IMG/VR virus record: IMGVR_UViG_3300024433_002526
Direction: 5' to 3' (one strand)
From: a virus
DNA length: 22,737 bases
The notes under the pieces are model-generated. The model worked only from the letters and a program-made list of their open reading frames with translations, had not been told where the DNA came from and did no database searches. Position numbers and translations under genes: made by a program. Of the stretch, positions 6,267 to 20,986 are shown in pieces. How positions within the stretch are numbered: position 1 is the first letter of the stretch; each line of letters starts with the position of its first letter.

Positions 6267-8115
6267 TCTCGTCCTTCGTCTCGTCGATGGTCATCGCCAG
6301 ATCGAGGTGGTCCTCGGTCTTGTACAGCTCTCCGCTGGTGTCCTTGCTCGGAATAGCCGAACCCTCTTCCTCGCCGCCTTCCCTCCCGAACCAGTCCTCA
6401 CGAAGGTCCTTCACGAAGAAGTGCTTCGCATCGGAAGGCTTGACCTTGCGTGACTCCATCATCTGGTTGACCCGGCCGAGCCGCGTGACCAACTCCATGA
6501 GCAATGGCCGTAGCTCGGGCCGGAGCTTCTCGAACTCTGCTCCTGGTGCTCCCGAGGGTCCTTCGGCCGGAGGCGGCGGCGGCGGAGGCAGTCCCGGACC
6601 GGCGGCATTGACATCGCCCGGCGGTGGCATCTCAGGAGGCGGCGCTGGCGGCGCACCAGGCTCGCCACCTTGTTGCTGTGGAGCACCCGGCAGGATCAAC
6701 GCGTCGATCAGCCTGTCGGACAGGTGCCCATACTGCTTGAGCACGTACCTGATCCAGATCTGCATGTCGAAGTTGACCTGTTGTCCGAGGTTGAGCAGGC
6801 GATCGATGATGTCAATGCGGATCTCGATCAGCTGCTGACGGTGCAGCTCTTCGAGGAACGAGACCGGTGCCATAGCCAGGGTGAACTGGTTGTCCGGATC
6901 TCGGGGGTCGATCCCCCTAAACGCCAGGTTCAGCTGGAGGACACGGTGAACACCAAGCAGGAAGTACCGCTGCAGCTTCTGCGGTATGCGGACGTATCGA
7001 CTGTCCTGCTGTGTGAGTCTCCGGCTGGGGTCATACGGTGTCGAGCCCTCGATGTTGTAGCCAAAGAAGCTGGGCGGGATGCGGACCGACGCGTGATACC
7101 GCGCCAGATAGTAGTGCAGGTTCGTAGCTTCATTCGCGTTGCTCGAACCCTTGAGTCGTTCGATCTTCGTCTCGCGTCCCTGCACCTGAGGGACCACGAG
7201 GTCCTCATTCGCCGTCCACGGGTTCCAGTCCTCACGGAGCTGGCCGCTGCTCGGGTCGTAGTACTTCGTCTTCTTGAGCTTCGTCGTGAAGCGCTCGACG
7301 TAGTCCGAGGTCTCCTCGTCAGTGAGGCCAGTGCAGTCGACGTAGTAGACGTCGCGGTCAGCATGGCGCTGAAGGATGTAGACGACGTCGGCGTCTTCGG
7401 CCATGCGCAACCTGCGGTACGGCCTGCGAGATGACACGAGCAACGTGGTGCCGTACATGGCCGAGAGCGATCCAAAGATCCTGAAGTGCACGATCTCCCA
7501 CGGCTGCTTGTTCGGCTCCGAGGAACCACCAGCAGTCTCGCCGAGGTAGAAGCCGAGCAGCGTTCCGGTGTCGTAGTCCTCAAACCTGCGGAACCGCTTC
7601 GGGTGGTGGAAGCGCAGCATGCTAATGCCGGTACCGGGCTCCCAGAAGAGTTCGACAGGGAAGTCGCCATATTTGCCGAGGCCTCTGCCGACCAGTGGCG
7701 CGTACTCTTCGAGCTGAGTGGTCTCGATGCACTCCTCGCAGATCTGGCGGATCTCTTCGTTGCAGTCCTCCACCCAGAGCATGCGGTTCGTTGCCGGGTC
7801 GATCTGGATTGCGTCCTCGGTATACGTGTCGAGCACGGCCGACGGGAGATCGTCCGAGTCCATGACATCGACCTCGTCGTAGATCTCCATCCTCGTCTTG
7901 CCCAGACGCATGCGCTCGCCGTAGAACGAGTACATGTTCTGGCCTTCTTCGCCAGACGCGAGCGACGGCGCGGCAGCCTTCCCCGAGGTGTCCCGTCGTC
8001 GCATGTAGGGTTTGGGCGCTCCATAGAGGACGCCTCGGATGAAGTTGTAGATACGGGTCCCAAAGCCTTGCCTGGGTCGCATCTCTTCGTTGACCACCTG
8101 CGGTGCCTGCGCCAT
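6256..8115 (-). CDS. Portal protein (with C-terminal proline-rich insertion)
   Basis: 619 aa, immediately downstream of the large terminase. ATG 8115 is preceded by GGGAGG with a 7-nt spacer. The N-terminal motif 'RMEIYDEVDVMDSDDLPSAVLDTYTEDAIQ' resembles the conserved portal motif (Y-x-E-x-x-x-M-D ... ALD-x-Y-A-x-D-A). Size and position are typical. Confidence 0.7.
   Translation of the reverse strand: MAQAPQVVNEEMRPRQGFGTRIYNFIRGVLYGAPKPYMRRRDTSGKAAAPSLASGEEGQNMYSFYGERMRLGKTRMEIYDEVDVMDSDDLPSAVLDTYTEDAIQIDPATNRMLWVEDCNEEIRQICEECIETTQLEEYAPLVGRGLGKYGDFPVELFWEPGTGISMLRFHHPKRFRRFEDYDTGTLLGFYLGETAGGSSEPNKQPWEIVHFRIFGSLSAMYGTTLLVSSRRPYRRLRMAEDADVVYILQRHADRDVYYVDCTGLTDEETSDYVERFTTKLKKTKYYDPSSGQLREDWNPWTANEDLVVPQVQGRETKIERLKGSSNANEATNLHYYLARYHASVRIPPSFFGYNIEGSTPYDPSRRLTQQDSRYVRIPQKLQRYFLLGVHRVLQLNLAFRGIDPRDPDNQFTLAMAPVSFLEELHRQQLIEIRIDIIDRLLNLGQQVNFDMQIWIRYVLKQYGHLSDRLIDALILPGAPQQQGGEPGAPPAPPPEMPPPGDVNAAGPGLPPPPPPPAEGPSGAPGAEFEKLRPELRPLLMELVTRLGRVNQMMESRKVKPSDAKHFFVKDLREDWFGREGGEEEGSAIPSKDTSGELYKTEDHLDLAMTIDETKDENES
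6529..6693 (-). repeat. Low-complexity Pro/Gly/Ala tract inside the portal gene
   Basis: Encodes 'LPGAPQQQGGEPGAPPAPPPEMPPPGDVNAAGPGLPPPPPPPAEGPSGAPGAEFE'. On the plus strand it appears as ggcggcggcggcggagg-type runs. Confidence 0.8.
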
Positions 8116-8118
8116 CTA

Positions 8119-11100
8119 TCAACCTCCCACCAAAATTGCCGGTGCCTGCGGTAGTCCCCCGACCGGTAGCCGTTGCTGCATCTCCAACTTGTTGGCCCTC
8201 TTCCTCGGTGGGATCAGACCGTAGACTGCCCCACACAGAGCGTCGCTCACGTCCTTGGACCCACTGAGCGGCTTGAAGACCTTCTTCGCCGTTATGTCGT
8301 GCGACAGGTGCCTCAGCTCAGTTTCGAGCGGTTCGTACGGGTACGTTCTGATTATCCCGGACTCGTAGACACCCTTCAAGTTTATATACGGATCATCCGA
8401 TTCGTCGACACTCACAAAATCAGCCTCGATGCCCATCTTGTGGAGCTTCTGTACGAAGTGCCTTGACTGGTACTTGTCCAGGGAGACCATCTGGAACGTG
8501 TAATGGTTCCGGTGGAGGTACTCAACGAATTCGATGATCTTGTCGAAGTCCACTTCGCCCCGGCCGTACGGAGGCGGATCGATCCGGAATGCGAAGTCCA
8601 GGTAGGTGAGCGGCATGCCTCCCTGTGGCGGTGTCCACATGTGCACGCACGCGATTCCCACTGAGCAGCCGGTCACCGCAAGGTCGATATGCATGACGCG
8701 CCCAGCCTCTGGGTGCAGCCTCGGCCGATAGTGGTTGAGGTGTGTCTCGAACATGATGTCCTCGCGCACAGCGTCCTGAATGCGGACAGGCGAGTTCGTC
8801 GAGATCACCATGAACTGGGTCTTGAACGGGTGAACCAAGTTCTCGTCGTAGTTGTTGTATATGACTTCCGGCCTGTGGAACAACCCGCTCGCCGCAACCG
8901 TCGCACGCCCAGCGATATTGCGGATGAAGTCTTCGATGTTGTTTTCGGCGTCGGGCTTGTGCTCCAACGGGGCCGTGATCACATTGGCCTCGTCTACCTG
9001 GTCAGCCTCGTCCTCGCCCTCCACGAGAATACGAGGCTCCGCAGTGTCGTCGCCACAGAAGACCCGGAACGTCCTTCCGCTCTTGTATGTGCCCTCGGGC
9101 TGAACGTCCCATATGGCACGAGAAATTACCGCGACACCGTCCTCGTGGCCGTGCTTCGTAATGTGCTCTTCGAGGAAGTCAGTCTGGGCGCGTCGCTGCG
9201 AGAGCAGGCACATGAAGTATGGCGCGGCCGAGCCAGGGCTGGCTACGAACTGGTTGCGGAGGCGTCCTCGGATCGCGCCGTACAGCTTCTGCGCCTGACC
9301 CAGCGATTCCTCTGCATGCGCCCTGCTTCGGCCCTTAGCCGAGCGCATGAAGTTGACCTCGTCGAGAATACCGCCGATGAATGTTTCACCCAGTGCGTGA
9401 AGCTCGGTGGCGCCCTCAACGATCGACACATGGTCCGGAAGGATCAGCTCCTTGCTGCGCTCGCCACTCAGCCGAGAGAACTTCTCCACGAAGTACGGGC
9501 ACTCGTCGATGATCGCCTGGATACGCGAGTGCATGTCGCCGGTCTTGTACTTGAAGATATTGAAGATGCCGTACCGGATGCTCGATCCACGCATCAGACC
9601 AAAGAATCCCTGTGGGTCCCTCAGCAACGAGAGTAGATAGATCCGGTACCCGGCCATGATCGTAGCCAGGGTGGTGTTATGTGTGACTACACAATGGTCT
9701 GTCAGATAGAGACCACCTGGCGCGGACGTTGAGATGCACTGGGTCTCTTCCGCACCGGAGTATTCAACTGATACAATGGCCCTACTTGGAGCGTATCGAG
9801 CCCTCGGCCTGTAGTGGTTCTTCTTTCTAGTGAGCTGGAATGGGCAGAGCCATGATGGGAGTGCCAGCCTCAGCCTATACCGATCTCGACCGGCCGTAGG
9901 ACCAACAAGATATCTGCAAACACCGCCAAGACTTTCGACCAGGAAACGCACATCGGCAGCAAGACGTGGCGACGCAGTCGAATACTCCAGCTTGTTGTTG
10001 CTGTGCTCAACAGAACCGTTTTCAGTATCCATGAGACCCTGCAACAAATACGCCCGTTGCTGTACGCTGCCATAGAGGTAGTCCTTCGGTACTCGCTTCT
10101 CGTGCGCTGGGTGGCACATGTCGAGTGCCTTGAGGGCTTGCATCAACGGATTAGACTTACCACCGCGCGTGCCAGAGGAGAGCGAGTAAGTGTACCGGCC
10201 TTTGTGGTTTGCCTGAACACCAGGAGGTAAGAGAGCCGCCACCCAATGCAGAAGTTCCCTATCAGAGGTCGTCAATATTGGCGTGTTCTGCGTGAGACCG
10301 CCATTACCGATCAACACACCCGCCAGGTATGGGTGAAGCAGGAGATGTCGTTCCGACCACTGTATCGGGTCAGCCACTGGAACGAACCACTTATTCGAGC
10401 CGTCCCTATAGTGTAGGTCCGACGAAAGCTCCCGAAGAGTCTTCGTTCTCAGGGGTCGCCTATAGTGCTTGTCAGACTTCGTGAAGACAGACCAGAGATG
10501 CTCCGCGCCGCACCGAACCACCTGTCCATCAGAGAACGTCACAGTGTAGACGTCACGAGCACCCTGTGGGTAGACACCGGTCACCGGGTAGAAGTAGCCA
10601 TCCCTGCCAGCTACCAGATCATTGGTAGTGATGTCTCCCATCTTCTTCAGGCCGTCGGAAGTGATCAGTTCTGAGGTCAGTGGTTGGTCTTTGCCCCACC
10701 TTGTGGAGCCCGTGAGGACGACCTCGAAGACTCGGTTCTTCGGGTTGAGCAGCCAGCACGCATCCCGGAAGTTGACTGGGTAGAGACCCTCACCGAAGCG
10801 GCCCGCGTAGTATGGGTCAGTGAGAAACTGGCGTGGTGTGACCGGGATGTCCTTGTAGTCCTGTGTGACAATCCCAGCCGCAGTCTCGCTCCAGCCATCA
10901 AGCATCAGCTCGTCAACGATACGAGGAATCGAGTCGCGGAGGTGCTGGAAGTCTTCTGCCCTGACAAGGTTCGCAACCTCGTCGAAGGATGAATAGACCT
11001 TCAGAATCTCTCTGCGGAGATCCGGGTCGAGACCGGCGACAAACTCGTCGTCACCGTTTATGTGAGCCGTCAGTGCCAGCTGGAGGAGATTTCTCTTCTT

Positions 11101-11136
11101 CCCCACTACCGGCCTGTCGACCTCGGGCCTTAACAT
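8119..11136 (-). CDS. terL: Terminase large subunit, intein-containing precursor (1005 aa)
   Basis: Walker A 'GSTRWGK' is interrupted after Lys149 and resumes 'TTLATIMAGY'. Walker B is 'GGILDEVNF'. The C-terminal RNase H-like nuclease region contains 'HIDLAVTG', 'VSLDKYQ' and 'DVSDALCGAVYG'. In the 86-nt overlap with the upstream gene, this frame carries the G/C third-position bias, which supports ATG 11136. Confidence 0.9.
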   Translation of the reverse strand: MLRPEVDRPVVGKKRNLLQLALTAHINGDDEFVAGLDPDLRREILKVYSSFDEVANLVRAEDFQHLRDSIPRIVDELMLDGWSETAAGIVTQDYKDIPVTPRQFLTDPYYAGRFGEGLYPVNFRDACWLLNPKNRVFEVVLTGSTRWGKDQPLTSELITSDGLKKMGDITTNDLVAGRDGYFYPVTGVYPQGARDVYTVTFSDGQVVRCGAEHLWSVFTKSDKHYRRPLRTKTLRELSSDLHYRDGSNKWFVPVADPIQWSERHLLLHPYLAGVLIGNGGLTQNTPILTTSDRELLHWVAALLPPGVQANHKGRYTYSLSSGTRGGKSNPLMQALKALDMCHPAHEKRVPKDYLYGSVQQRAYLLQGLMDTENGSVEHSNNKLEYSTASPRLAADVRFLVESLGGVCRYLVGPTAGRDRYRLRLALPSWLCPFQLTRKKNHYRPRARYAPSRAIVSVEYSGAEETQCISTSAPGGLYLTDHCVVTHNTTLATIMAGYRIYLLSLLRDPQGFFGLMRGSSIRYGIFNIFKYKTGDMHSRIQAIIDECPYFVEKFSRLSGERSKELILPDHVSIVEGATELHALGETFIGGILDEVNFMRSAKGRSRAHAEESLGQAQKLYGAIRGRLRNQFVASPGSAAPYFMCLLSQRRAQTDFLEEHITKHGHEDGVAVISRAIWDVQPEGTYKSGRTFRVFCGDDTAEPRILVEGEDEADQVDEANVITAPLEHKPDAENNIEDFIRNIAGRATVAASGLFHRPEVIYNNYDENLVHPFKTQFMVISTNSPVRIQDAVREDIMFETHLNHYRPRLHPEAGRVMHIDLAVTGCSVGIACVHMWTPPQGGMPLTYLDFAFRIDPPPYGRGEVDFDKIIEFVEYLHRNHYTFQMVSLDKYQSRHFVQKLHKMGIEADFVSVDESDDPYINLKGVYESGIIRTYPYEPLETELRHLSHDITAKKVFKPLSGSKDVSDALCGAVYGLIPPRKRANKLEMQQRLPVGGLPQAPAILVGG
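9676..10689 (-). mobile_element. Intein (~338 aa) with LAGLIDADG homing-endonuclease domain, class 3-like signature
   Basis: Removing residues D150..N487 restores the P-loop G-S-T-R-W-G-K-T. The C-terminal end is 'VVTHN|T' (block G). Two LAGLIDADG-like motifs are present, 'YLAGVLIGNGG' and 'YLLQGLMDTENGS'. There is no Cys/Ser/Thr at intein position 1, and there is Trp in 'AEHLW' (block B), Cys in 'ETQCIS' (block F) and Thr before HN. Codon usage inside is visibly A/T3-richer, with many AGG/AGA codons, than in the flanking extein. Confidence 0.85.
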
Positions 11137-11995
11137 TGATCTGCTCCACTGCTACTTCCCGCTCGACCTTCGACGGTATGTCCGGCCCGTTCTCAGGGCC
11201 GCCGGACAGGAATCCCTGCATGGCTTGGGTGAACTCACTGACCGAAGCGGTCAGGTGATGCCTCCGCTGTTCAACCTGCCTCCGCGCCTCGGTGTCGGTG
11301 CTGTCACCAGACTCGATGGTGCCAGCTGCTACGAAACCCATGCGCACGGTACCGCCGTCACCTTTGGGCGGCTTGGGCGTCGCCTTCTCCACAACCTCAG
11401 CAAGTAATCGTATCGCGTTGGTCGCGTCCTTGATGTGGGCATTGGCGTGCCCCATGAAGTCCCACAGATCGTCGTAGTTGAGTTCCGATGCGTCAGCCAG
11501 CTCGAACATCCTGCGTGACGCTACAGCGCTTGCCTCCATGATCGGACCGATCCTGTGCATCTGGTACGTCAGCAGCATATTCGCCGCCGCACGCAGCAAC
11601 GAAGGGTCCGCGCTGTCGATCTCTATCTGCTGGTTACCGTCGAACCAATCAGGCCAGCGTCCGTTCGTCATGCGGTACATGTACGCACGGTAGATCTGAT
11701 CCCCAGTGACCCGCTTATCGAACGGGATGAAGAACGACTGGCCGGGATACATCTTGTCGTACTCACGCAGCGTCGTCTCGTGATCCTCGCTCAGGTGCTT
11801 CTCGAATTCAGCTATGCCGTTGAGGTGTTTGTGGCACAGCCAGCAGGTACGCACACCGAGCTGCTTCAAGATCTTGGCATCGGGCTGCTTCCTCTTCTTC
11901 GCCTTCTGCTCAAACCAAAGCTCACGCCGCGTTGCCGCCTTCTTCTTGGCAGCCTTCTTCTTCTTCTTGGTTGCAGCCTTCTTCATCTTAGCCAT
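11051..11995 (-). CDS. Lys-rich C2H2 zinc-finger DNA-binding protein (possible small terminase subunit by position)
   Basis: N-terminus 'MAKMKKAATKKKKKAAKKKAAT..KAKKRKQ'. Then 'CWLCHKHLNGIAEFEKHLSEDH', which is C-X2-C-X12-H-X4-H. A helical body follows. It lies directly upstream of terL and overlaps it. No recognisable TerS motif, so the function is inferred from position only. Confidence 0.55.
   Translation of the reverse strand: MAKMKKAATKKKKKAAKKKAATRRELWFEQKAKKRKQPDAKILKQLGVRTCWLCHKHLNGIAEFEKHLSEDHETTLREYDKMYPGQSFFIPFDKRVTGDQIYRAYMYRMTNGRWPDWFDGNQQIEIDSADPSLLRAAANMLLTYQMHRIGPIMEASAVASRRMFELADASELNYDDLWDFMGHANAHIKDATNAIRLLAEVVEKATPKPPKGDGGTVRMGFVAAGTIESGDSTDTEARRQVEQRRHHLTASVSEFTQAMQGFLSGGPENGPDIPSKVEREVAVEQINVKARGRQAGSGEEEKSPPAGTDGSHKR
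11876..11995 (-). repeat. (AAG/GCN)n Lys/Ala-coding low-complexity tract
   Basis: The plus strand shows cttcttcttggcagccttcttcttcttcttggttgcagccttcttcat. A comparable tract lies at 18219..18320. Confidence 0.8.
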
Positions 11996-12389: not shown

Positions 12390-13039
12390 TATGCCACCAA
12401 TGCTTCTGGTCCGTAGGTCACGTCGTAGTAGACCCAACGGTAGAGTATAGTCAGGTAGGTGTACATGAAGCCCGGGTCCCAGTAACCCGTCTCGATGATC
12501 ATCTCTTCTATCGTCCTGGAGTCTGCGTTCCGGCATTCAAGCTCCACGTAGTTACGGCACAGGTCGAAGTCCACGACGTCGAAGCGTGCACGTCCTGCCA
12601 TCTTCTCCGCGATCACATCCTTGTGCCAACCCGCCAGATGCGCGGCCCACAACTTGCCGTGCAGATTCGGCTCCTGCTCGGGCTCGGTGCTCTCGGCGTA
12701 CTTGTCCCGCGAGCGCTCTTCGGCCTGTGTCTTCCGATGGTTGCCGATCAGGAATTGTTGTGTCACAACCCGCACCGACCCCACAAAGAGACTTGGACTG
12801 TCACAAGGGATCTTCCGCTGGGACAGCCTCGACCACAGTTCCAACTGCAGCTCGGCCAGGTGGTCATCGAGATCGAACTCGGAACAGTTGTAGTCCTTAC
12901 CCTTGATGACCGCAGTGACGTAGTGCTTGATCACCGACCAGATCGCAACCCACCGATCCTCGGGCATGCTCGTCTCGTTGCCAGCGGCATACTCACAGTA
13001 CGCGTGGAACGCCGTCATCTTGTAGTCGCTACGCCCCAT
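12389..13039 (-). CDS. Putative sigma-factor-like regulator (216 aa)
   Basis: ATG 13039 is preceded by GGTGG with a 6-nt spacer. There is weak resemblance to sigma region 2 ('DDHLAELQLELWSRL') and to a region 4-type HTH ('HLAGWHKDVIAEKMAGRARFDVV'). The assignment is tentative. Confidence 0.3.
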   Translation of the reverse strand: MGRSDYKMTAFHAYCEYAAGNETSMPEDRWVAIWSVIKHYVTAVIKGKDYNCSEFDLDDHLAELQLELWSRLSQRKIPCDSPSLFVGSVRVVTQQFLIGNHRKTQAEERSRDKYAESTEPEQEPNLHGKLWAAHLAGWHKDVIAEKMAGRARFDVVDFDLCRNYVELECRNADSRTIEEMIIETGYWDPGFMYTYLTILYRWVYYDVTYGPEALVA

Positions 13040-14687
13040 TGAAAACCACCATTGGCTTCGTTGGTTCCGGCTCGTTGTATGCGCCTATCCACGAGCCCTG
13101 GCTCTCGGTGTAATTGACAACGATCTTCCGCCGTACCGGCACCGGGTACTCTCCTTGCGGGCTCATTACGAAGACAGCCGAGCCCTGAGCAGTCGGCAAC
13201 AGATAGTTCTTGTAGAGACGACGCTTTGCCCATGGATCGAGCACGTCGACAACGTCGTCGCAGACTAGGATCGGCACCGGGTTCGGCCAGGTCCCCATAA
13301 GCACCTCACGCAGAGCGGCCTGGATACTCAGGTCGATCTTCCTTCGCTGACCGACCGAGGACTTCTTGTACTGCCCGGCCCGGCTCTGCACAAGCAGGTT
13401 GATCTCGGCCTTGGTCGTGCCCTTCTTCAGCTCGCGATCGGTGCATAGCTGCGCCAGGAACTCGGATTCCCACACATCGTTGCACATCTCGACGAGCTTC
13501 GTGTTCACTGCATCCAGCACCGACCCCATCTTCCGTATTGGGATCTCGGCGAAGGCAGCGTCTAGCAGATCCAACTCAGCAACCTCGCCTGTCGTCTGCG
13601 CCACTGCTGCCTCAACCTGGGCGAGCTGTAGCTCGATCGAGGTAACTTGCTCTGTAGCCGCGTCTACTTGGGCCAGCTCACCAGTAAGCTGCTGCAGCTG
13701 CATGCGGTAGTGCTGGATCTCGGCAAGCAGCTTGTCAGACACAGCTTTCAGATCGGCCAGGGTGCTCGACGCTATGACCCGAGCACACTCAGTGTTCTCG
13801 GCCGTGAGCTTCTTGATCGCGTTCGCCGCTGTCTTCTGGGCAGACTCGATCGCCTGCTTCGAGTAGGGCCTCTTGCAGGTCGGACACGCAGTCATGCTCT
13901 GGAGCGAGGACCTCTGCTGTGCAATCTGGCGCTCAGTATTGTTCTTGTTAGCCATGGCCTGGCCTATGCGAGTCGACTCACCCTGAACCTTTGAGTTGGC
14001 CGCGCCGAGTTGCTGGCTCCTCGCCTGCTCCTGCTGCTGGGCCGTGGTCATCTCCGCCACGATCGTGGCCCTCGGCCTACGCACTTGGGCCTGTGTTGCC
14101 TTGAGCTGCGTCAACTGATTGCGCAGGGTGTTGGCGGACCCTTGTAGCTGCTGCAGCTCGCCAGTGCGCTTCCTGCGCTCCTGGGCAAGCGTAGAGCGAG
14201 CCTGCTTCCAACGTTCGAGCCCGAGCAACTCAGAGAGCTGCTGGGCTCGGTTGCCTGGTGTCCAGGAGGACAGGCGCTCGGCCACCCCCTGGCCAAGGAT
14301 CAACGTCGAGCAGAAGATCTCCTTCGGTGGGAAGACCTGCGCGAGGTACGCTTTGGAATCCGCCAGCGTGCGCGGGCCGCCATCGATCGTGATCTCGTTG
14401 CTGGTACCATCCGCCTTCTGCGACCTCGCGATCGTGACGAATGGAAGCTCCAACTCAACGCGGCACGACTCTGCCCCGTTGTAGCAAACCTCTCGGATGC
14501 CCTCGGTGGTCTCTCCATAGATCACCCATGCTAGAGCGTCAGGCAAGAAGGTGCTCTTGCCTGCACCGTTCGACCGGTCGCCCTCTCCCTCGTAGATGCC
14601 CTCAACTGCAACGAGACCTGCAGTCTCGATCTTGTAAGAGAGTTTTTGGTACGAACGGAAGTTCTCAGCTGTCAGCCTCAGTATCAT
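13029..14687 (-). CDS. Rad50/SbcC-like (T4 gp46-like) ATPase
   Basis: N-terminus 'MILRLTAENFRSYQK' and Walker A 'SNGAGKSTF'. A long Q/A/L-rich coiled coil carries a central 'CPTC' zinc-hook motif. There is a signature-like 'SVGQRRKIDLS' and Walker B 'ILVCDDVVDVLD'. Confidence 0.85.
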   Translation of the reverse strand: MILRLTAENFRSYQKLSYKIETAGLVAVEGIYEGEGDRSNGAGKSTFLPDALAWVIYGETTEGIREVCYNGAESCRVELELPFVTIARSQKADGTSNEITIDGGPRTLADSKAYLAQVFPPKEIFCSTLILGQGVAERLSSWTPGNRAQQLSELLGLERWKQARSTLAQERRKRTGELQQLQGSANTLRNQLTQLKATQAQVRRPRATIVAEMTTAQQQEQARSQQLGAANSKVQGESTRIGQAMANKNNTERQIAQQRSSLQSMTACPTCKRPYSKQAIESAQKTAANAIKKLTAENTECARVIASSTLADLKAVSDKLLAEIQHYRMQLQQLTGELAQVDAATEQVTSIELQLAQVEAAVAQTTGEVAELDLLDAAFAEIPIRKMGSVLDAVNTKLVEMCNDVWESEFLAQLCTDRELKKGTTKAEINLLVQSRAGQYKKSSVGQRRKIDLSIQAALREVLMGTWPNPVPILVCDDVVDVLDPWAKRRLYKNYLLPTAQGSAVFVMSPQGEYPVPVRRKIVVNYTESQGSWIGAYNEPEPTKPMVVFNGA

Positions 14688-14693
14688 CGGGCA

Positions 14694-15149
14694 CTACCCG
14701 CCTGCTCTTGGAGCTTCGTTCTTGGGGCGCCAGAAGGTCACGTTCCCCGGTAAGTGCTTCACGACTTGAAGAACATGTGCGTCAGCGATCCGGTGACGCC
14801 CAGGGAACTCGACGTTGAACGCTGTCCTCGGGTCGTCTTCCGCCATCACTTGCAGCGACTCGACTGCCGCCTGGAGTACGGACATCGTGTGCGATTGCAT
14901 CATCCCAAACCAGCACATCAGTGAGGCACCGCCGCGTGCGAACTGCTCCCGGAGATGTTCCGGGTCGAAAAGGAGCAGGTTGTACGGCTCCTTCTCCTGG
15001 CGGAGTTTCTCAGCCACGCGGCGAGCGATCGGCTGCAAGACGAGGTACCTGATCACGCTGCCAACAGGGTCGACGATGAACGCCGTGCCCGGCCGGTTCC
15101 ACTGAGAAGTCATGTCACCGTACTTGAACGTTGGGTTCCTCATGTTCAT
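14694..15149 (-). CDS. Hypothetical protein (151 aa) between the Mre11-like and Rad50-like genes
   Basis: ATG 15149. Composition is normal. The gene fits tightly between its neighbours (a 23-nt gap upstream, 6 nt downstream). No motif recognised. Confidence 0.65.
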   Translation of the reverse strand: MNMRNPTFKYGDMTSQWNRPGTAFIVDPVGSVIRYLVLQPIARRVAEKLRQEKEPYNLLLFDPEHLREQFARGGASLMCWFGMMQSHTMSVLQAAVESLQVMAEDDPRTAFNVEFPGRHRIADAHVLQVVKHLPGNVTFWRPKNEAPRAGG

Positions 15150-15172
15150 AACAGATTACCCTATGCCTGCTC

Positions 15173-16216
15173 TCAAGCCAAGAACTTCCTCGCCAGCTCA
15201 AGCAGCTTCGGCGAACACTGCCCGCGCTCCGACAGGAGTCGCTCGACGTCTGCCACTGGGTCACCACCCAGATCGAACACAGCCTTCTTCGCTACAACAA
15301 CCGACTCCTTCTTCGGCCGCACCCGCACAGTCTTGATACCAGCTTGCTGGTACGGTGCCGGGTCCACATCCTCAGTCAGGTTCACGTGGAGCTGCTCACC
15401 AATGAACGGGCAGCGTGCAATCTCAATGTCGAGCTGGTCCTTGGTCCCGCTGAAGAACGTGTGTGAGTGCGGGTTCTGCAAATACGTCACACTGCCGGTC
15501 GGCGCCGGATCTGTCTGCCACAAACACGCGCCATGAAACCGACCGAGGTCCTTGAAGTTGTGCGCCATGACACACCCAGGCACATGGATTGGTGTCATCA
15601 CGGGACCAATGTCGTACTCGGCGTTGTTCGCTATATGGTAGTGCCCGGCGAAGACGATGTTGAAGAGCATCGTCACGTCAACGAGGTCGAGACCTTTGTC
15701 CTTTGACCCACCGAGCATCATCCCCTCGATCGGAACGTGCGTGTACAGCGCCGTCGGCTTGTCGTCTGTCTGGACCCAATCCTGGAACTTGTGCTGGCCC
15801 CAGTTCATTGGGTTGTCCATCCATGGCTCGAACGGTAGCAGAGCTATACGGAAGGACCCGTAATCGACCGCCATCGGTTTCTTCACAAAGTAGAATGCCG
15901 AGCTTGGCGGAGGGTCGAAGATGTCGAGCGCAGAATAGAGATCCGAGTACACATCATGGTTGCCGATCAGCATGTAGACGTGGACGCCGTGCTTCACCGC
16001 GAGGCTCTTCAGGGTGTCGATGGCCCACTTCGCCCGGAGGTTTGCCAAGAGGTCCTGGCCCTGAACGCTCTCAATGGTGTCACCGAGCCACACAAGCACA
16101 TTGACATTCCGCGCCAGCACCGTGTCGTGGACCCATCGAACCGTCGCCTCGAAGGCGTCGCCACCGAGAGTCTTCTTGGTCTGTGTGTGCAGGCAGCCTG
16201 CTGTCATCACGTTCAT
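15173..16216 (-). CDS. Mre11/SbcD-like (T4 gp47-like) metallophosphoesterase nuclease
   Basis: I place the start at ATG 16216, which forms an ATGA overlap with the FEN stop. Calcineurin-like motifs are 'WLGDTIES', 'LIGNHDVY', 'YTHVPIEG' and 'FAGHYH'. Motif I reads 'GCLH' rather than the usual D-x-H. Confidence 0.85.
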   Translation of the reverse strand: MNVMTAGCLHTQTKKTLGGDAFEATVRWVHDTVLARNVNVLVWLGDTIESVQGQDLLANLRAKWAIDTLKSLAVKHGVHVYMLIGNHDVYSDLYSALDIFDPPPSSAFYFVKKPMAVDYGSFRIALLPFEPWMDNPMNWGQHKFQDWVQTDDKPTALYTHVPIEGMMLGGSKDKGLDLVDVTMLFNIVFAGHYHIANNAEYDIGPVMTPIHVPGCVMAHNFKDLGRFHGACLWQTDPAPTGSVTYLQNPHSHTFFSGTKDQLDIEIARCPFIGEQLHVNLTEDVDPAPYQQAGIKTVRVRPKKESVVVAKKAVFDLGGDPVADVERLLSERGQCSPKLLELARKFLA

Positions 16217-17181
16217 CGCAACACCTCGAATGCTTGAACCCATGATCCATACGTGCGGAGGAGAGGATTCATCTCGTACAGCGTCATGAATTGCATCACG
16301 GCCTGCCAGTTGAACACAGGCTGCTGATGCCAGTGCATCCAGACCCAGTTCCGTTCCTCTTCGCCCATCGCGAGGCCAGACCAGAACCAGACAAGCTGGA
16401 TGTTGCGCTCGATCTGCTGTTGTACTTCGGCTTCGAGCAGCGACTGGTACTTCTTCGCCTTGGGGAAGTGCTGCTTCACAGCCTCTACCATCTGCGCCAA
16501 GCTCGGACCCTTCGACTTGTCCATGAGATTGCGCACTCCGCCGGGGCCGAGTCCCTTACAGGGCGACGGGATGTTGTCGGACGAGTCGCCAAGGATGCCC
16601 TTCGCTACGATCACCTCCCAGGGTCCCCAATCACTCCAGTCCCGCCAGTTGTCAGCACCGACGACCAGCTCCTTATTCGTAGAGTAGACCATGCTGTGCT
16701 CACCAAGGATCTGCGCAAAGTCCTTGTCCTCAGACACGACGTACGAGTCGCAGTTATACTGGGCCAACGTGTTTGACAGGTACCAGATCGTGTCGTCTGC
16801 CTCGTGCGGCCCATTGACCACAACCACACCGAAGCTCGGAAGATACTGAAGGAGGATGTCACGCTGGTAGATGTACATCTGCCTGTAGTTCTCAGACTCC
16901 ACGCGGTCCTCTTCGCTCTTGTACTCCTTGCGCTTGTACTCAGGGTAGAGGGCCACTCGGTTGGGATGCTTGTCGAAGTCATGAACCCATAACACGCGTG
17001 ACGGGTTCAGTGTCCTGACGATCGCTGTCAGAGACTGGAGCGATTTCATAGCAGCGCCGATCGGAGCACCGTGCGGACCCGACTCAGCGCCGGGCAGGTG
17101 CATCGATCGATGGAGTATGTACGACCCGTCAATTATGGCTACCCCACCGGGTCGAAGCCGTTGTAAGCCAGCCTTCGGCAT
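16213..17181 (-). CDS. 5'-3' exonuclease / flap endonuclease (FEN, PIN-like plus H3TH)
   Basis: Motifs 'VAIIDGSYILHRS', 'HEADDTIWYLS', 'VVSEDKDFAQIL' and 'GILGDSSDNIPSPCKGLGPGG'. I place the start at ATG 17181; the track's 17196 is a TTG. The gene overlaps the end of the RecA-like gene. Confidence 0.85.
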   Translation of the reverse strand: MPKAGLQRLRPGGVAIIDGSYILHRSMHLPGAESGPHGAPIGAAMKSLQSLTAIVRTLNPSRVLWVHDFDKHPNRVALYPEYKRKEYKSEEDRVESENYRQMYIYQRDILLQYLPSFGVVVVNGPHEADDTIWYLSNTLAQYNCDSYVVSEDKDFAQILGEHSMVYSTNKELVVGADNWRDWSDWGPWEVIVAKGILGDSSDNIPSPCKGLGPGGVRNLMDKSKGPSLAQMVEAVKQHFPKAKKYQSLLEAEVQQQIERNIQLVWFWSGLAMGEEERNWVWMHWHQQPVFNWQAVMQFMTLYEMNPLLRTYGSWVQAFEVLR

Positions 17182-18320
17182 TGGTCCACCATCCAAGCTC
17201 TAACATCGGTTCGCTCGATCAAGAACTGACGGTACGTATTCCAGTAGCACGCCGCAGGCGTTGGCATACGGAACGTGATCACCTTGCCCAGGTTCTGTGC
17301 GTCCTCTTTCCCTGGTGCAGTGACACTGATGTGGCTTGCTCGCTGTGACAAGTACTCAAACATGGCGAAGTCATCGTCGAATCCGCCTTGGAATGTCACA
17401 GGTATCCGCGTCCTTCGGTGCGGCGGGAACGTCTTGTTTTTGCGGGCCACGGCATACGGCATCACACCGTAGCTCGCCTTCGACTCACCATAGACCTGGC
17501 CTCCCGCCTGGACAGCCTGGGCCTCCAAGAACTTCTTTGCGCTGCGGAATTCCATGCGGATCGAAGCATGGAATCTGATGCCCTGCCCAAACGGTGTCGC
17601 GGGCTCGGTGTCCCACTGGTTGAACGTCGCGGACACATGGTTCACGAACACCATGAGAGCGTTGTGCTTCGCGACGAGCCCGGTGATCTCTCGCAGTCCT
17701 TCGCGCACAACACGACCCCCAGAACCCGGTCGGTCGTCCTTGGAGTGTGATGCTCCGATAGTATCCCATGTGATCAGCATGGGCTTGTTGTGCTTCTTCC
17801 CACCCAAGAGGCTCTTGATCCACGCATAGCCGTCCTCGATGAACTCGAACTCAAGGTACTTCACCGCGTGAGTGTCGACACCGATGCGGGCCATGCGTGC
17901 AGGGTCGAGCGTGTACTCAGTAATCCCCATACAGACTTCGCCGCCAACACGCTGAACCTGAGCAGCCAGGTTTTCACAGAACGTGCTCTTTCCTGTGCTG
18001 TACGCTCCGACGACCTCAATGATACGACCGACTGGAACTCCCCAGTTCGTCGCGAGCGTACCGTCAGACGGGCTCGGTATGACCTCCCCGTCCTCGGTGA
18101 CAGTGGTGGGGCCACCCATGATCGCATCGAGCGGAGTACACCCACAGCTGATACGCTCGCGAACAACCGAGTAGAGCTTGGCGGTCCCGAGCACTCCGAC
18201 CGGGACCGCCTGCTCTGCCTTCTTGCCCTTCTGCTTCTTTGCGGCCTGCTTCTTGGTGCTCTTCTTCTTGGCCTTCTTCTTCTTGGGCGTCGTCTTCTTG
18301 GTCTGCCTTTTCGCTACCAT
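17139..18320 (-). CDS. RecA/UvsX-like recombinase with Lys-rich N-terminal tail
   Basis: The RecA core is colinear: 'VGRIIEVVGAYSTGKSTF' (Walker A), 'MLITWDTIGA' (Walker B), 'LMVFVNHV', 'PFGQGIRFHASIRMEFR' and 'VARKNKTFPP'. ATG 18320 has GAGGAG 10 nt upstream. ATG 18344 is an alternative start. The tail is 'VAKRQTKKTTPKKKKAKKKSTKKQAAKKQKGKK'. Confidence 0.85.
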   Translation of the reverse strand: MVAKRQTKKTTPKKKKAKKKSTKKQAAKKQKGKKAEQAVPVGVLGTAKLYSVVRERISCGCTPLDAIMGGPTTVTEDGEVIPSPSDGTLATNWGVPVGRIIEVVGAYSTGKSTFCENLAAQVQRVGGEVCMGITEYTLDPARMARIGVDTHAVKYLEFEFIEDGYAWIKSLLGGKKHNKPMLITWDTIGASHSKDDRPGSGGRVVREGLREITGLVAKHNALMVFVNHVSATFNQWDTEPATPFGQGIRFHASIRMEFRSAKKFLEAQAVQAGGQVYGESKASYGVMPYAVARKNKTFPPHRRTRIPVTFQGGFDDDFAMFEYLSQRASHISVTAPGKEDAQNLGKVITFRMPTPAACYWNTYRQFLIERTDVRAWMVDQCRRLAYNGFDPVG

Positions 18321-18385
18321 GAGTTCCGCACTCCTCGTCCGCATCGGACTTCAAGAAGGCACGTTCGACAGAGCACCGAGCCGTT

Positions 18386-18432: not shown

Positions 18433-20265
18433 CTACTGGGAAAAAGGGGGCTGCTGCCAGTTCGGAGCCGCCATCCCGGCCGGTGCCGGGGCAGGCGCGG
18501 GAGCCGGTACAGCTGCTGGCACCGCCGCAGGAGTCGCGGGCGTTGCAACGGCCTTACACTTCGCGGACTTGTTGAGGTGCGTCGTCAAGCCGCGTTGGCC
18601 GCTGTACTCGTTACCGCAGGCAGGGCATAGGACCTTGTCGGCCTTGGCCTTCCCTTTCGACTTGCCCTTCTTCGCCGGTTCTCCAGCACCATCAGTAGGG
18701 GACGTTGCCACCTGCTGCGGGGCCGGAGCCGGGGGGAAAGGGCTTTGGGGTCCTCCCTGTCCCGGCATCGCCGGAGGCTGAGGGAGAGCGCCAGCCTGAG
18801 GAGCCGGTGCAGGCATGGGCATTGGTGCCGGTGCCCCTGCGGGCATAGGACCAGGAGCCATCATCGGAGCCCCTGGGGGAACAACACCCGGACCCATTGC
18901 TGGCGCCCCTACAGGAGCGCCCGGCACCGCTGGCGGCGCCCACATGTTCTGCTGTGGCTGTGCCAGCATCGGAGCTGGCGTCGGTGCCGGTGCCACGGCA
19001 GCCGGTGCCCCGCCGACCGGGGGCATCATACCCATCGGTCCAACTCCGGCCGGAGCTGCCACCGAGGAACCCACTGGAGCTGGCTGAGGAGCTGACTGCG
19101 GGACCCCGGTGGCAGGCTGTCCGGCCATCGCAGGCATCGGCATTGAGCTTGGGCCACCGACACCCGGTGCGGTGTTCTGGAACTGGTTCGGCGGTCCCAT
19201 CACACCCACTGCAGGAGCTGGAGGCTGAGGTGCGAACTGCTGACCTGCCTGAGGTCCGAACTGCTGTCCCGGCATCCCCATCTGGCCCATCGCGGGTGCG
19301 GCTGCACCATGCGTCTGGCCTACGATGTCGGGAACGGTGAGCTGCAGATTGAGGCCGAGCTGCTCCGGATGGTAGCCTGTCATCTGCAAGCACTGCTGCG
19401 CCAGAGTCTCTGCGATCTTCATCTGGTTCTGGAGCTTCTCGACCGTCGGGATACCGAAGTTCGCGAACGAGTCGAGGTCATGCATGCCGCTGAGAATCTG
19501 CTGCATCGTGTTCGGATCACCGGCGAGCGGACCCTGCATCGTCTGTTGCCATGTGTAACTGTTCTTGCCCTGGAACGACACGGGCTTCTTGACCAGCATG
19601 ATCCAACCTGTCTGAAGGTTGAGGATCGATCCCACGTACGGCATGGACATCAGCTGCACGAGACCCGAGAACACCGAGACGGGCAGGCGCAGGACGTAAG
19701 GCTTGAGCCGCCTGTACAACATGGTGCGGCCCATGTCCTGCGTGTCGTAGATCACCGAGTTGACGTACTGGTAGGAGCGGGGCGTCATGTTGTCGAGGCT
19801 GCCGCCCATGTACTGACTGTACACATCGATCACCTGGCAGATCGGGCACGTGAAACCGTAGTTCGGGTACGACTTCTCCCAGCACGACGAGTGCTGGTTG
19901 CCGAGCAGCTGGTGGTGCGAGCAATGGAACTTCGACCACGCTCCACGCTGTGCAGCCGCGTCGCTCCACGGCGGGAGCACGCGGAACCAGTTGTCACCGG
20001 TCTTGAAGGAGTAGAAGTCTGTGTCCTTCTTCCGCGCCGCGTTCATCGTGCTGATTTCTTCGGCCTGTTTGCGGATGCTCTCCATGTCGACGTCACGAGC
20101 CATGATAGAGTTGACGTCGACACCCGGAGCACCACCCTGGCCGCCCGGCGGCATCGCCGGAGGCTGTGCAGGTGCGAATTGAGCCGCCTGCGGGACGACG
20201 GGTGCCATTCCCGGCTGCCCGGGCATTTGCATTCCCCCGCCAGGCATCATCTGTCCTGGTTGCAT
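18433..20265 (-). CDS. gp32-like ssDNA-binding protein with long P/A/G/M/Q disordered regions and a C-terminal C2HC zinc finger
   Basis: ATG 20265 is preceded by AGGGAGG with a 7-nt spacer. The core (res ~80-300) is colinear with T4 gp32 as I recall it: 'DNWFRVLPPW' vs 'QAVIRFLPS'; His/Cys cluster 'H..C...CPICQ' vs 'H...C...CPVCQ'; 'SYQYVNSVIYD' vs 'SYWANILVVKD'. Low-complexity regions cover res 1-48 and ~318-530. A Lys-rich patch and 'CPACGNEYSGQRGLTTHLNKSAKC' follow. Confidence 0.6.
   Translation of the reverse strand: MQPGQMMPGGGMQMPGQPGMAPVVPQAAQFAPAQPPAMPPGGQGGAPGVDVNSIMARDVDMESIRKQAEEISTMNAARKKDTDFYSFKTGDNWFRVLPPWSDAAAQRGAWSKFHCSHHQLLGNQHSSCWEKSYPNYGFTCPICQVIDVYSQYMGGSLDNMTPRSYQYVNSVIYDTQDMGRTMLYRRLKPYVLRLPVSVFSGLVQLMSMPYVGSILNLQTGWIMLVKKPVSFQGKNSYTWQQTMQGPLAGDPNTMQQILSGMHDLDSFANFGIPTVEKLQNQMKIAETLAQQCLQMTGYHPEQLGLNLQLTVPDIVGQTHGAAAPAMGQMGMPGQQFGPQAGQQFAPQPPAPAVGVMGPPNQFQNTAPGVGGPSSMPMPAMAGQPATGVPQSAPQPAPVGSSVAAPAGVGPMGMMPPVGGAPAAVAPAPTPAPMLAQPQQNMWAPPAVPGAPVGAPAMGPGVVPPGAPMMAPGPMPAGAPAPMPMPAPAPQAGALPQPPAMPGQGGPQSPFPPAPAPQQVATSPTDGAGEPAKKGKSKGKAKADKVLCPACGNEYSGQRGLTTHLNKSAKCKAVATPATPAAVPAAVPAPAPAPAPAGMAAPNWQQPPFSQ
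18676..19314 (-). repeat. Low-complexity coding region (Pro/Ala/Gly/Met/Gln-rich, ~210 aa)
   Basis: Examples are 'PAMGQMGMPGQQFGPQAGQQFAPQPPAPAVGVMGPP...APMPMPAPAPQAGALPQPPAMPGQGG'. It generates several spurious overlapping ORFs in other frames and on the other strand (18692..19393, 18745..19095, 18815..19087, 18897..19340). Confidence 0.85.
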
Positions 20266-20278
20266 CGCTATTACCTCC

Positions 20279-20986
20279 CTAGCCAGTCACCTGGGGTGAT
20301 CGCGGGTCAGACGACTCCCTGATCAGTCCCAATTCGCGCTGGGTCCACACGCTCGCCTGGACGAGCATCTCTGTTTGCATACTGTCGAGCAGGTTCTGCA
20401 GCTGGTAGCCCAGGTACTCCCAGTCATCCTGCAGCTCCTGCAACATCGAGTGCGTCGGGTCATTCCTGATCTGCGCGTCGACCGCGTCGTTCGTCACCTT
20501 GATGCTCTTGTCCTGCATGGACATCTCACCAAGTCTCTGACGGGTCGGCATGTCGAGGTCGCGCTGGCGCATCTTGCGCACACGCTCGACCAGGCGCTGC
20601 ATCTCGGTGGACCACGTACGGTAGAACCGAATGCTCTCCGCGATCCGCACGTACTCCATGACGATCGAACGGATCTCGGTGTTCTGGAACCACGAGATGA
20701 TGTTCACGATCTGCGTGTACATCGGGTTCAGGTACTGCATCGTCTCCAGCAACCGCTGATCGTTCGAGGCCTGTGTCGCCTGGTAGATCTTCTGGATCTT
20801 CGTGTAGAGGTACTGCTGCACGAAGTCGAAGGAAGGCTTGTTCACTGCCTGTCCCTCCACTGGTGGCAGATGCACATACACCTGATCCGGTGTTGGCTGC
20901 GTTCCCCCTTGCGTTGCTGGTGCAGCCTGACCCTGCAACGCACTCTTCTTGACGGCCTTCTTCTTTGCCACTGCTCCTCCTTTCAT
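20279..20986 (-). CDS. Hypothetical helical protein (235 aa) with Lys-rich N-terminus; a recombination mediator or replication accessory role is possible from context only
   Basis: ATG 20986 overlaps the polymerase stop (TGATG). N-terminus 'MKGGAVAKKKAVKK'. The rest is predicted helical, with at most a faint UvsY-like flavour. It lies between the polymerase and SSB genes. Confidence 0.65.
   Translation of the reverse strand: MKGGAVAKKKAVKKSALQGQAAPATQGGTQPTPDQVYVHLPPVEGQAVNKPSFDFVQQYLYTKIQKIYQATQASNDQRLLETMQYLNPMYTQIVNIISWFQNTEIRSIVMEYVRIAESIRFYRTWSTEMQRLVERVRKMRQRDLDMPTRQRLGEMSMQDKSIKVTNDAVDAQIRNDPTHSMLQELQDDWEYLGYQLQNLLDSMQTEMLVQASVWTQRELGLIRESSDPRSPQVTG

Follow-up and report, generated by a model that had tools for sequence, protein, structure and literature searches.

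An intein with class 3 hallmarks in the terminase P-loop of an uncultured phage, with a short conversion tract at its insertion point and an altered LAGLIDADG endonuclease

The viral DNA described here (IMG/VR record IMGVR_UViG_3300024433_002526; 22,737 nucleotides, hereafter the window) carries an open reading frame (ORF) for the large terminase subunit, TerL, whose Walker A motif is interrupted. The ORF (8119..11136; this and all other terL features below are on the minus strand) codes for GSTRWGK at residues 143-149, continues for 338 amino acids, and resumes with TTLAT from T488. We judge it very probable that the insert (9676..10689, D150..N487) is a class 3 intein with a nested LAGLIDADG homing endonuclease, located at precisely these boundaries. 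The best explanation of the data taken as a whole, and one that we hold to be highly likely, is that such an intein has recently been exchanged among close relatives of this phage and carries lesions in its endonuclease.

The 338-residue insert, which comprises a HINT domain and the endonuclease, is recognized on the basis of homology, fold and an exact 1014-nt presence/absence polymorphism. It starts with DQPLTSE and ends with VVTHN, and its removal restores the canonical Walker A sequence GSTRWGKTT. The N-terminal part of that motif (G143-S-T-R-W-G-K149, 10690..10710) forms the end of the N-extein and is contiguous with T488 in intein-less alleles, while the C-extein (8119..9675) supplies the remainder of the TerL ATPase domain and the nuclease domain, as judged by tblastn and by alignment to annotated terminases. 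A search with the spliced extein recovered intein-containing alleles at 97-99% identity and also an intein-less TerL of 657 amino acids, P0035, that differs from the spliced extein by one residue (Leu for Met494). Because this allele reads RWGK|TTLAT (the bar marks the insertion point) and is without exactly those 1014 nt, it fixes the D150..N487 boundary. The two contigs that carry it, L003 (ENA) and L004 (Logan), share 98.1-99.2% identity with the window along about 20 kb, and the intein is the sole large difference. A first-pass annotation made from the sequence of the window had described the split Walker A motif, had noted that excision of D150..N487 would recreate GSTRWGKT, and had proposed that related phages be searched for the empty site. 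Its coordinates and all of the motifs it quoted are correct, and the empty site has now been found with the same junction.

Class 3 inteins are distinguished by a non-nucleophilic residue 1, Trp at position B:12, Cys at F:4, Thr at G:5 and Thr or Ser at position +1 (Tori et al. 2010, PMC2807308), and they reside mostly in the ATPase P-loops of helicase-like proteins, TerL included (PMC2807308). Each of these sequence features is present in the insert. Block A (DQPLTSELITSDG, 10651..10689) begins with Asp, and therefore the intein has no N-terminal nucleophile. Block B (GQVVRCGAEHLWSV, 10486..10527, including 'AEHLW') carries His64 (10498..10500) and Trp66 (10492..10494), the latter being the first member of the Trp-Cys-Thr (WCT) triplet. 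Block F (ETQCISTSAPGGLYLT, 9700..9747, including 'ETQCIS') contributes the WCT residue Cys318 at F:4 (9736..9738), which is the predicted first nucleophile, and the aromatic residue Tyr328 at F:15. Block G together with the +1 position (HCVVTHN|T, 9673..9696) supplies the WCT residue Thr336, then His337 and Asn338, followed by Thr488, the Walker A threonine. Across a 31-sequence alignment, the invariant columns include His64, Trp66, Cys318, Thr336 and His337, and Asn338 is conserved in at least 90% of sequences. Position 1 in 23 inteins aligned with MAFFT is Ala in most and otherwise Gly, Asp or Arg, and it is never Cys, Ser or Thr; the +1 residue of homologous inteins is Thr or Ser. The insertion point corresponds to the 'classic' TerL P-loop site between the invariant Lys and Thr, as in mycobacteriophage TerL1-a (PMC5050341). 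The assignment to class 3 and the description of the terminase P-loop as a known insertion site, both offered in the first-pass annotation, thus hold, the former also by homology to class 3 inteins of solved structure.

Database searches returned 34 homologues of the intein, with E values down to 1e-65. Junctions could be read in 21 of these, and they show a P-loop-like GK before the insert (a few hosts vary) and THN|T/S at its end (THT in one). The hosts are ATPases of the PhoH, SNF2, DnaB and AAA_30 types, as well as TerL-type proteins, with the insertions at GK|T/S P-loop sites. The endonuclease scores 26.4-30.6 bits with the Pfam model LAGLIDADG_3, whose gathering threshold is 22.5. When the intein was compared with the PDB by phmmer, residues 5-70 aligned with gp41-1 and with the class 3 DnaB inteins 6bs8, 6rix and 6riy, and the C-terminal '...QCIS...THN' lined up with '...RCVE...THN' of 6bs8, such that the block F cysteines coincide. 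In a search with a family profile, the E values were about 1e-22 for 6rix and 6bs8 and about 1e-18 for PI-SceI. The family alignment also served to build an AlphaFold2 model (mean predicted local distance difference test score 94.8, predicted template modelling score 0.93). In a Foldseek search with this model, the whole chain matched PI-SceI with a query-normalized template modelling score of 0.77-0.80 and an E value of about 1e-18, with TliVMA also among the matches. The splicing domain matches class 3 DnaB inteins at target-normalized scores of 0.73-0.80 (0.80 for 6bs8 from Mycobacterium smegmatis), and the gp41-1 and Prp8 inteins were likewise recovered. The inserted domain resembles I-DmoI and the endonuclease domain of PI-SceI. 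The insert therefore has the fold, the C-terminal His-Asn and the homology to known inteins that are characteristic of HINT domains, and its nested domain has the two LAGLIDADG helices and the alpha-beta-beta-alpha-beta-beta-alpha pseudo-dimer of a monomeric LAGLIDADG enzyme.

If the intein follows the mechanism of the class 3 family, from which the following steps are taken, the 1005-residue precursor would be unable to bind ATP because GSTRWGK is parted from its threonine. Cys318, aided by His64 and Trp66, would attack the Lys149-Asp150 bond to form a thioester branch, and the N-extein would then be transferred onto the side chain of Thr488. Cyclization of Asn338 with the help of His337 would free the intein, and an O-to-N shift would yield a 667-residue TerL with an intact GSTRWGKT. 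TerL is presumed to be essential, and splicing of the window allele must on that account still work. We consider the intein likely to be splicing-competent. The ratio of non-synonymous to synonymous substitution rates (dN/dS) of the intein is 0.23-0.34, indicative of purifying selection, and constraint on the whole intein is to be expected because loss of splicing would inactivate a protein that the phage cannot do without.

Comparison of the window with the empty alleles reveals a pronounced signature of exchange at the insertion point. The exteins differ at seven nucleotides, six of which are located within 35 nt of the junction (16 upstream and 19 downstream), with one difference in the remaining ~1970 nt of terL. 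The five upstream markers, at -16 to -1 (10690..10705), are all synonymous, with TCC ACA AGG TGG GGC AAA in the intein-containing allele and TCA ACT CGT TGG GGC AAG in the empty one. The downstream marker at +19 (9657..9675) is ATG (Met494) in the former and CTG (Leu) in the latter. Thus, the L003-type empty site reads TCAACTCGTTGGGGCAAG|ACCACC...ATCCTG, whereas intein-type flanks joined without the intein would read TCCACAAGGTGGGGCAAA|ACCACC...ATCATG. This cluster is one of only three dominated by substitutions in the 20-kb alignment. The state of the flanks is completely linked to the intein, in that all 10 intein-containing loci have one state and both empty loci have the other, and the intein-type flank is found in two extein backgrounds that are 2.2% apart (window/L013 and L005). 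Judging from the informative sites, the tract extends for between 16 and 93 nt upstream and between 19 and 86 nt downstream. Given that the flank markers cluster at the insertion site in nearly identical genomes, a recent gene conversion centred on this point has, we are confident, occurred among these phages, and such a footprint is what homing would be expected to leave. The view that the flank moved along with the intein is favoured because the AGG...AAA state recurs in L007, a distant intein-containing locus, while CGN...AAG is present in all five empty alleles examined. A polymorphism for presence and absence among close relatives, accompanied by co-transferred flank markers, is the behaviour of a mobile intein.

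The endonuclease of the window allele is altered in both of its catalytic motifs. Motif 1 (PYLAGVLIGNGG, 10297..10332), for which the family consensus is LLGDG, has Asn129 (10303..10305) in place of the catalytic Asp of the family; this position is Asp or Glu in 19 of the 23 aligned inteins. Motif 2 (LLQGLMDTENG, 10015..10047), for which the consensus is LMDTDG, carries an AAA insertion at 10020..10022 that turns D-G into E-N-G, a one-residue insertion confined to the window lineage, since the other 22 aligned inteins retain D-G. Accordingly, neither motif presents the acidic residue followed by Gly (Asn129 in one, Glu223-Asn224-Gly225 in the other). The first-pass annotation had called the endonuclease partly degenerate on the basis of Asn129, which is borne out, and had missed the change in motif 2.

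These two changes are distributed among three haplotypes. The L013 type, represented by at least eight contigs, has Asp (GAC) at codon 129 in motif 1 and E-N-G, with the AAA insertion, in motif 2. The L005 type, known from one contig, has Asn in motif 1 and D-G in motif 2 (MDTDGS, without the insertion). The window type, with Asn and E-N-G, is found in three assemblies, those of P0077 (the window), P0080 and P0081. The inteins are more diverse than their hosts. L013-type inteins differ from that of the window at 35 sites, all within nt 453-1045, while the exteins differ at two, and intein haplotypes 6% apart therefore reside within exteins that are 99.9% identical. The window intein equals L005 across nt 448-971, is L005-like at all variable sites within nt 453-1045 except for one private change, and is identical to L013 over nt 1115-1461. 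Because the 5' part matches L005 and the 3' part L013, with the breakpoint falling in the interval 10022..10092, we regard the window intein as a recombinant that unites both of these independent lesions.

Several observations weigh against the reading presented above, either in its entirety or in one of its parts, and they are best assessed together with the rival explanations. Asp is rare at position 1 (two of the 23 aligned inteins), and splicing-domain models from Pfam and NCBIfam remained below threshold (Hom_end_hint, E = 0.25). As a consequence, HINT membership rests on homology to PDB entries and on fold, and the check with Hint and LAGLIDADG models that had been proposed in the first-pass annotation succeeded for LAGLIDADG_3 and not for the splicing domain. 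Moreover, splicing by way of a branched intermediate at block F and any cutting by the endonuclease are predictions. A conventional class 1 or a class 2 (KlbA-like) intein with its boundaries elsewhere could be envisaged because Thr and Ser follow shortly after the start of the insert (DQPLTSE...), so that Thr154 or Ser155 might serve as the start. We give this very little credence. The intein-less allele is without exactly D150..N487, which excludes a nucleophile at a different boundary, as any other choice would leave extra residues in the Walker A motif; a non-nucleophilic residue directly follows GK in 22 of 22 homologues; and the WCT triplet (by the definition of PMC2807308), together with a +1 residue that is Thr and not Cys, rules out class 2. 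Scarcely more credible is that the 338 residues are never excised and serve the terminase as a permanent accessory domain, such as a domesticated DNA-binding module, in which case the degenerate catalytic residues of the endonuclease and a dN/dS below 1, showing that the insert is still constrained, would both be accommodated. Such a domain would have to split the Walker A motif at GK|T in a protein for which phage genomes 98-99% identical do without it. It would also have retained every splicing residue (H64, W66, C318, T336, H337, N338 and T+1) and would belong to a family found at the same GK|T/S position in unrelated ATPases.

The direction of the conversion is less secure than its occurrence, as the difference between the alleles could reflect gain of the intein or its precise loss. 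Gain by homing is, in our estimation, moderately favoured. Intein-containing and empty alleles were sought together in one sample and were not found so, and the sample accessions differ. Conceivably, recombination with an intein-less relative removed the intein precisely from L003 and L004, or the synonymous changes clustered in their flanks represent an endonuclease-resistant target selected in intein-free phages; in neither case would the flanks be a co-conversion tract from gain of the intein. We consider this possible but rather unlikely. A single empty haplotype has been sampled, positions -16 to -1 hold five of the six differences, all of them synonymous and within a plausible LAGLIDADG recognition site, and the lesions suggest an old intein heading for loss. 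However, the intein-type flank is common to the two backgrounds 2.2% apart, as if it travels with the intein, and the contrast between L007 and the five empty alleles points the same way. Six point mutations in 35 nt, compared with one in ~1970 nt, are not explicable by ordinary mutation and require site-centred recombination in the loss scenario as well. With regard to the enzyme, we lean slightly towards the view that the endonuclease encoded by the window allele is inactive. It is doubtful, though conceivable, that it still functions as a nickase, or as a double-strand cutter that uses Glu223, with the changes tolerated or the specificity altered. Some LAGLIDADG enzymes use Glu as a catalytic residue, for example I-DmoI (E117), which is among the structural matches. 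In addition, E-N-G occurs in nine of the ten intein-containing loci over several samples and so may not be disabling, and dN/dS is below 1 across the intein. On the other side stand the Asn at a motif 1 position that is otherwise mostly acidic and the loss of a D-G pair that the other 22 inteins keep. In I-CreI and PI-SceI, replacement of Asp by Asn at this LAGLIDADG position abolishes cleavage. Neither the cluster members nor a pattern scan of IMG/VR yielded an allele in which the two motifs are canonical.

Under the preferred reading of gain by homing, the exchange would have been repaired by the phage's own UvsX/RecA-like, SbcCD-like, exonuclease, single-stranded DNA-binding (SSB) and PolA proteins. 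We also entertain, as a speculation to which we assign a low probability, that the intein keeps moving even though none of the three haplotypes (D/E-N-G, N/D-G and N/E-N-G) is fully canonical. By one route, enzymes with a single lesion would act as nickases, and repair of the nicks would produce unusually short conversion tracts. By another, half-crippled alleles would recombine to regenerate an active D/D-G enzyme, with the window allele as the dead reciprocal product. If true, this would be a natural case in which intragenic recombination allows an intein to persist, in contrast to the classical cycle that runs from invasion through decay to loss.

Codon composition was also informative, although not in the manner originally supposed. 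The first-pass annotation had described an abrupt switch at both junctions from G/C-rich to A/T-rich third positions, accompanied by AGG and AGA arginine codons, and had taken these features as a sign of recent horizontal acquisition. The G+C content at third codon positions (GC3) indeed drops from 0.762 in the extein to 0.598 in the intein (Fisher p = 1e-7), yet at 60% the intein is not A/T-rich. The GC3 scan across terL that had been suggested, here an unbiased two-breakpoint likelihood scan, independently places the low-GC3 segment at codons 149-486, nearly coextensive with the intein, and thus the discontinuity coincides with the junctions. Enrichment of AGA/AGG as a marker of foreign origin is rejected, as these codons account for 12 of 26 Arg codons in the intein and 16 of 49 in the extein (p = 0.32). 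GC3 is lower in the intein than in the extein also in L007, L008, L013, L005 and Rhodobacter phage RcTiptonus. Because low GC3 is common to orthologous inteins in TerL proteins that are 30-60% identical, it is a property of the intein lineage that is silent on the date of arrival, and we rejected it as proof of a recent one. Recent acquisition is instead argued for by the empty allele, the conversion tract and the mosaic haplotypes, while the argument from codon usage is weak.

The identity of the host gene rests on tblastn matches to annotated terminases of Rhodobacter, Vibrio, Stenotrophomonas and Rhizobium phages, because no Pfam terminase family was detected on the spliced extein and PHROGs support is weak (phrog_2, E = 0.005). 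The spliced product of 667 amino acids aligns end to end with the 667-residue TerL of Vibrio phage VA-RY-4 (31% identity over 579 columns, E = 2e-73). This TerL is inteinless and aligns without gaps over the junction, with GSTRWGKTTLAT in the window and GGIGTAKTTLAL in the Vibrio phage. The protein has the N-terminal P-loop ATPase and the C-terminal nuclease of a large terminase, the homology to TerL and the context of a packaging module. We suggest that annotations record the 1005-residue ORF as a 667-residue TerL plus an intein. Its start is ambiguous, and gene callers are split between the ATG at 11136 (1005 amino acids) and a GTG 10 codons, or 30 nt, downstream (995 amino acids).

A gene for a T4-like portal protein is located directly downstream of terL (6256..8115, minus strand), and its product has a proline-rich low-complexity stretch near the C-terminus (…PGAPPAPPPEMPPPGDVNAAGPGLPPPPPPPAEGP…). 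On the other side, an ORF of 314 codons (11051..11995, minus strand) overlaps the annotated terL start by 86 nt, and its product has a poly-Lys N-terminus and a C2H2-like CWLCHKH...HLSEDH. It has no Pfam or PHROG match, and its position suggests a small-terminase candidate. A complete set of genes for recombination and replication (13029..18344 and 20986..22698, minus strand) codes for SbcC-like and SbcD-like proteins, a 5'-3' exonuclease, a UvsX/RecA-like recombinase and a family A DNA polymerase. Together with an SSB-like protein also encoded in the window, these constitute the toolkit that homing uses in T4-like phages. A protein of 610 amino acids (18433..20265, minus strand) has a weak SSB PHROG match, long tails rich in Pro, Ala, Gly and Met, and a zinc-finger-like CPACG...HLNKSAKC at its C-terminus. 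Nearly all of the indel clusters between the window and L003 are located inside its gene, at roughly 18,500-19,250. A second substitution cluster relative to L003, with 12 mismatched columns in about 80 nt (about 4650..4730), lies near the boundary of a PDDEXK/RusA-like gene (3948..4703) and may be another recombination patch. A megablast search of the whole window against GenBank phages returned no match. Relatives of the window are found on contigs of 145-155 kb, and the source looks like a large uncultured phage lineage and not an actinophage.

Homologous inteins are present at the same site in TerL proteins with 30-97% extein identity, and among these the divergence of the intein roughly follows that of the extein. 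The carriers include the metagenomic TerL homologues P0045, P0050, P0063 and P0074 (33-60% extein identity). A related TerL, P0042 (67% identity), has an intact P-loop and a different insert in its C-terminal nuclease domain, at FKPFTG|CFSGDTKL, which corresponds to Gly959/Ser960 of the window protein ('KPLSG|SKDVSD', 8257..8262). Because this insert starts with Cys and a precomputed Pfam Intein_splicing match exists for P0042, there appears to be a second intein site in this TerL family. P0068 and P0070 also have Intein_splicing matches. In L008, the contig that carries P0050, the gene upstream of terL (1..1024) codes for a 727-residue neighbour with a weak precomputed Intein_splicing match, a hint that additional genes of related phages may harbour inteins.

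TerL is the commonest intein host in mycobacteriophages, and its inteins include members of class 3 (Kelley et al. 2016, PMC5050341). Experiments in that study showed splicing for representative TerL inteins and, for two of them, cutting of the terL gene of a partner phage in which the intein is absent (PMC5050341). A 2025 survey of actinophages counted 287 class 3 inteins, for the most part in TerL and Cas4 (bioRxiv 10.1101/2025.01.02.630785). Since class 3 inteins of terminase P-loops are thus documented by the hundred in actinobacteriophages, the element itself changes little. Its value lies in offering a clean natural example outside the actinophages, belonging to a family (GK|AQPLD...VTHN|T/S) that is spread over the PhoH, SNF2, DnaB and TerL P-loops of uncultured phages. 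It also affords a rare snapshot of the homing cycle at base resolution, in which an empty site, a short tract, recombinant haplotypes and the stepwise loss of catalytic residues are all visible at about 1-2% genome divergence.

The actinophage TerL inteins exemplified by TerL1-a resemble that of the window in their class 3 blocks, their nested LAGLIDADG domain and the coexistence of intein-containing and intein-less partner phages. However, the host of the window intein is an unrelated uncultured lineage with a T4-like portal and about 58% GC, its TerL is invisible to Pfam terminase models, and its intein has Asp1 and alterations in both endonuclease motifs. The class 3 prototype, the DnaB intein of mycobacteriophage Bethlehem (PMC2807308), has the residues H65/W67/C320/F330/T339/N341, equivalent to H64/W66/C318/Y328/T336/N338 here, and likewise lacks an N-terminal nucleophile, has Thr at +1 and an aromatic residue at F:15, measures about 340 amino acids with its endonuclease and resides in a helicase/ATPase. 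It differs in starting with Pro1, in its host protein and in that its splicing has been demonstrated, whereas that of the window intein is predicted. Among solved structures, the best relatives of the splicing domain are M. smegmatis DnaBi1 (6bs8) and M. chimaera DnaB-1 (6rix, 6riy), with which the N-terminus, the block F Cys and THN align; unlike the window intein, these are bacterial mini-inteins without an endonuclease domain. PI-SceI of yeast VMA1 (1vde, 1lwt) shares the two-domain layout of HINT and a double-motif LAGLIDADG enzyme, but it is a class 1 intein with Cys1, the canonical Asp218 and Asp326, and an extra DNA-recognition region. In the Rhodobacter phages RcTiptonus, RcDurkin, RcKickapoo and RcMenchie, whose TerL is 30% identical, the GK|T site is likewise occupied by a homologous intein (33% identity). 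It reads GGGK|RLAVD...AEHLW...RCI...VTHN|TT, with the non-nucleophilic Arg1. In RcTiptonus (MW677527, L001), this class-3-like intein of 335 residues is located within the coding sequence 2929..6069. The records of all four phages call the gene only 'terminase' and note no intein. In contrast to the window intein, that of the Rhodobacter phages comes with cultured hosts and retains the canonical LGDG and MDTDG endonuclease motifs, and these four phages would be convenient experimental models for the intein family.

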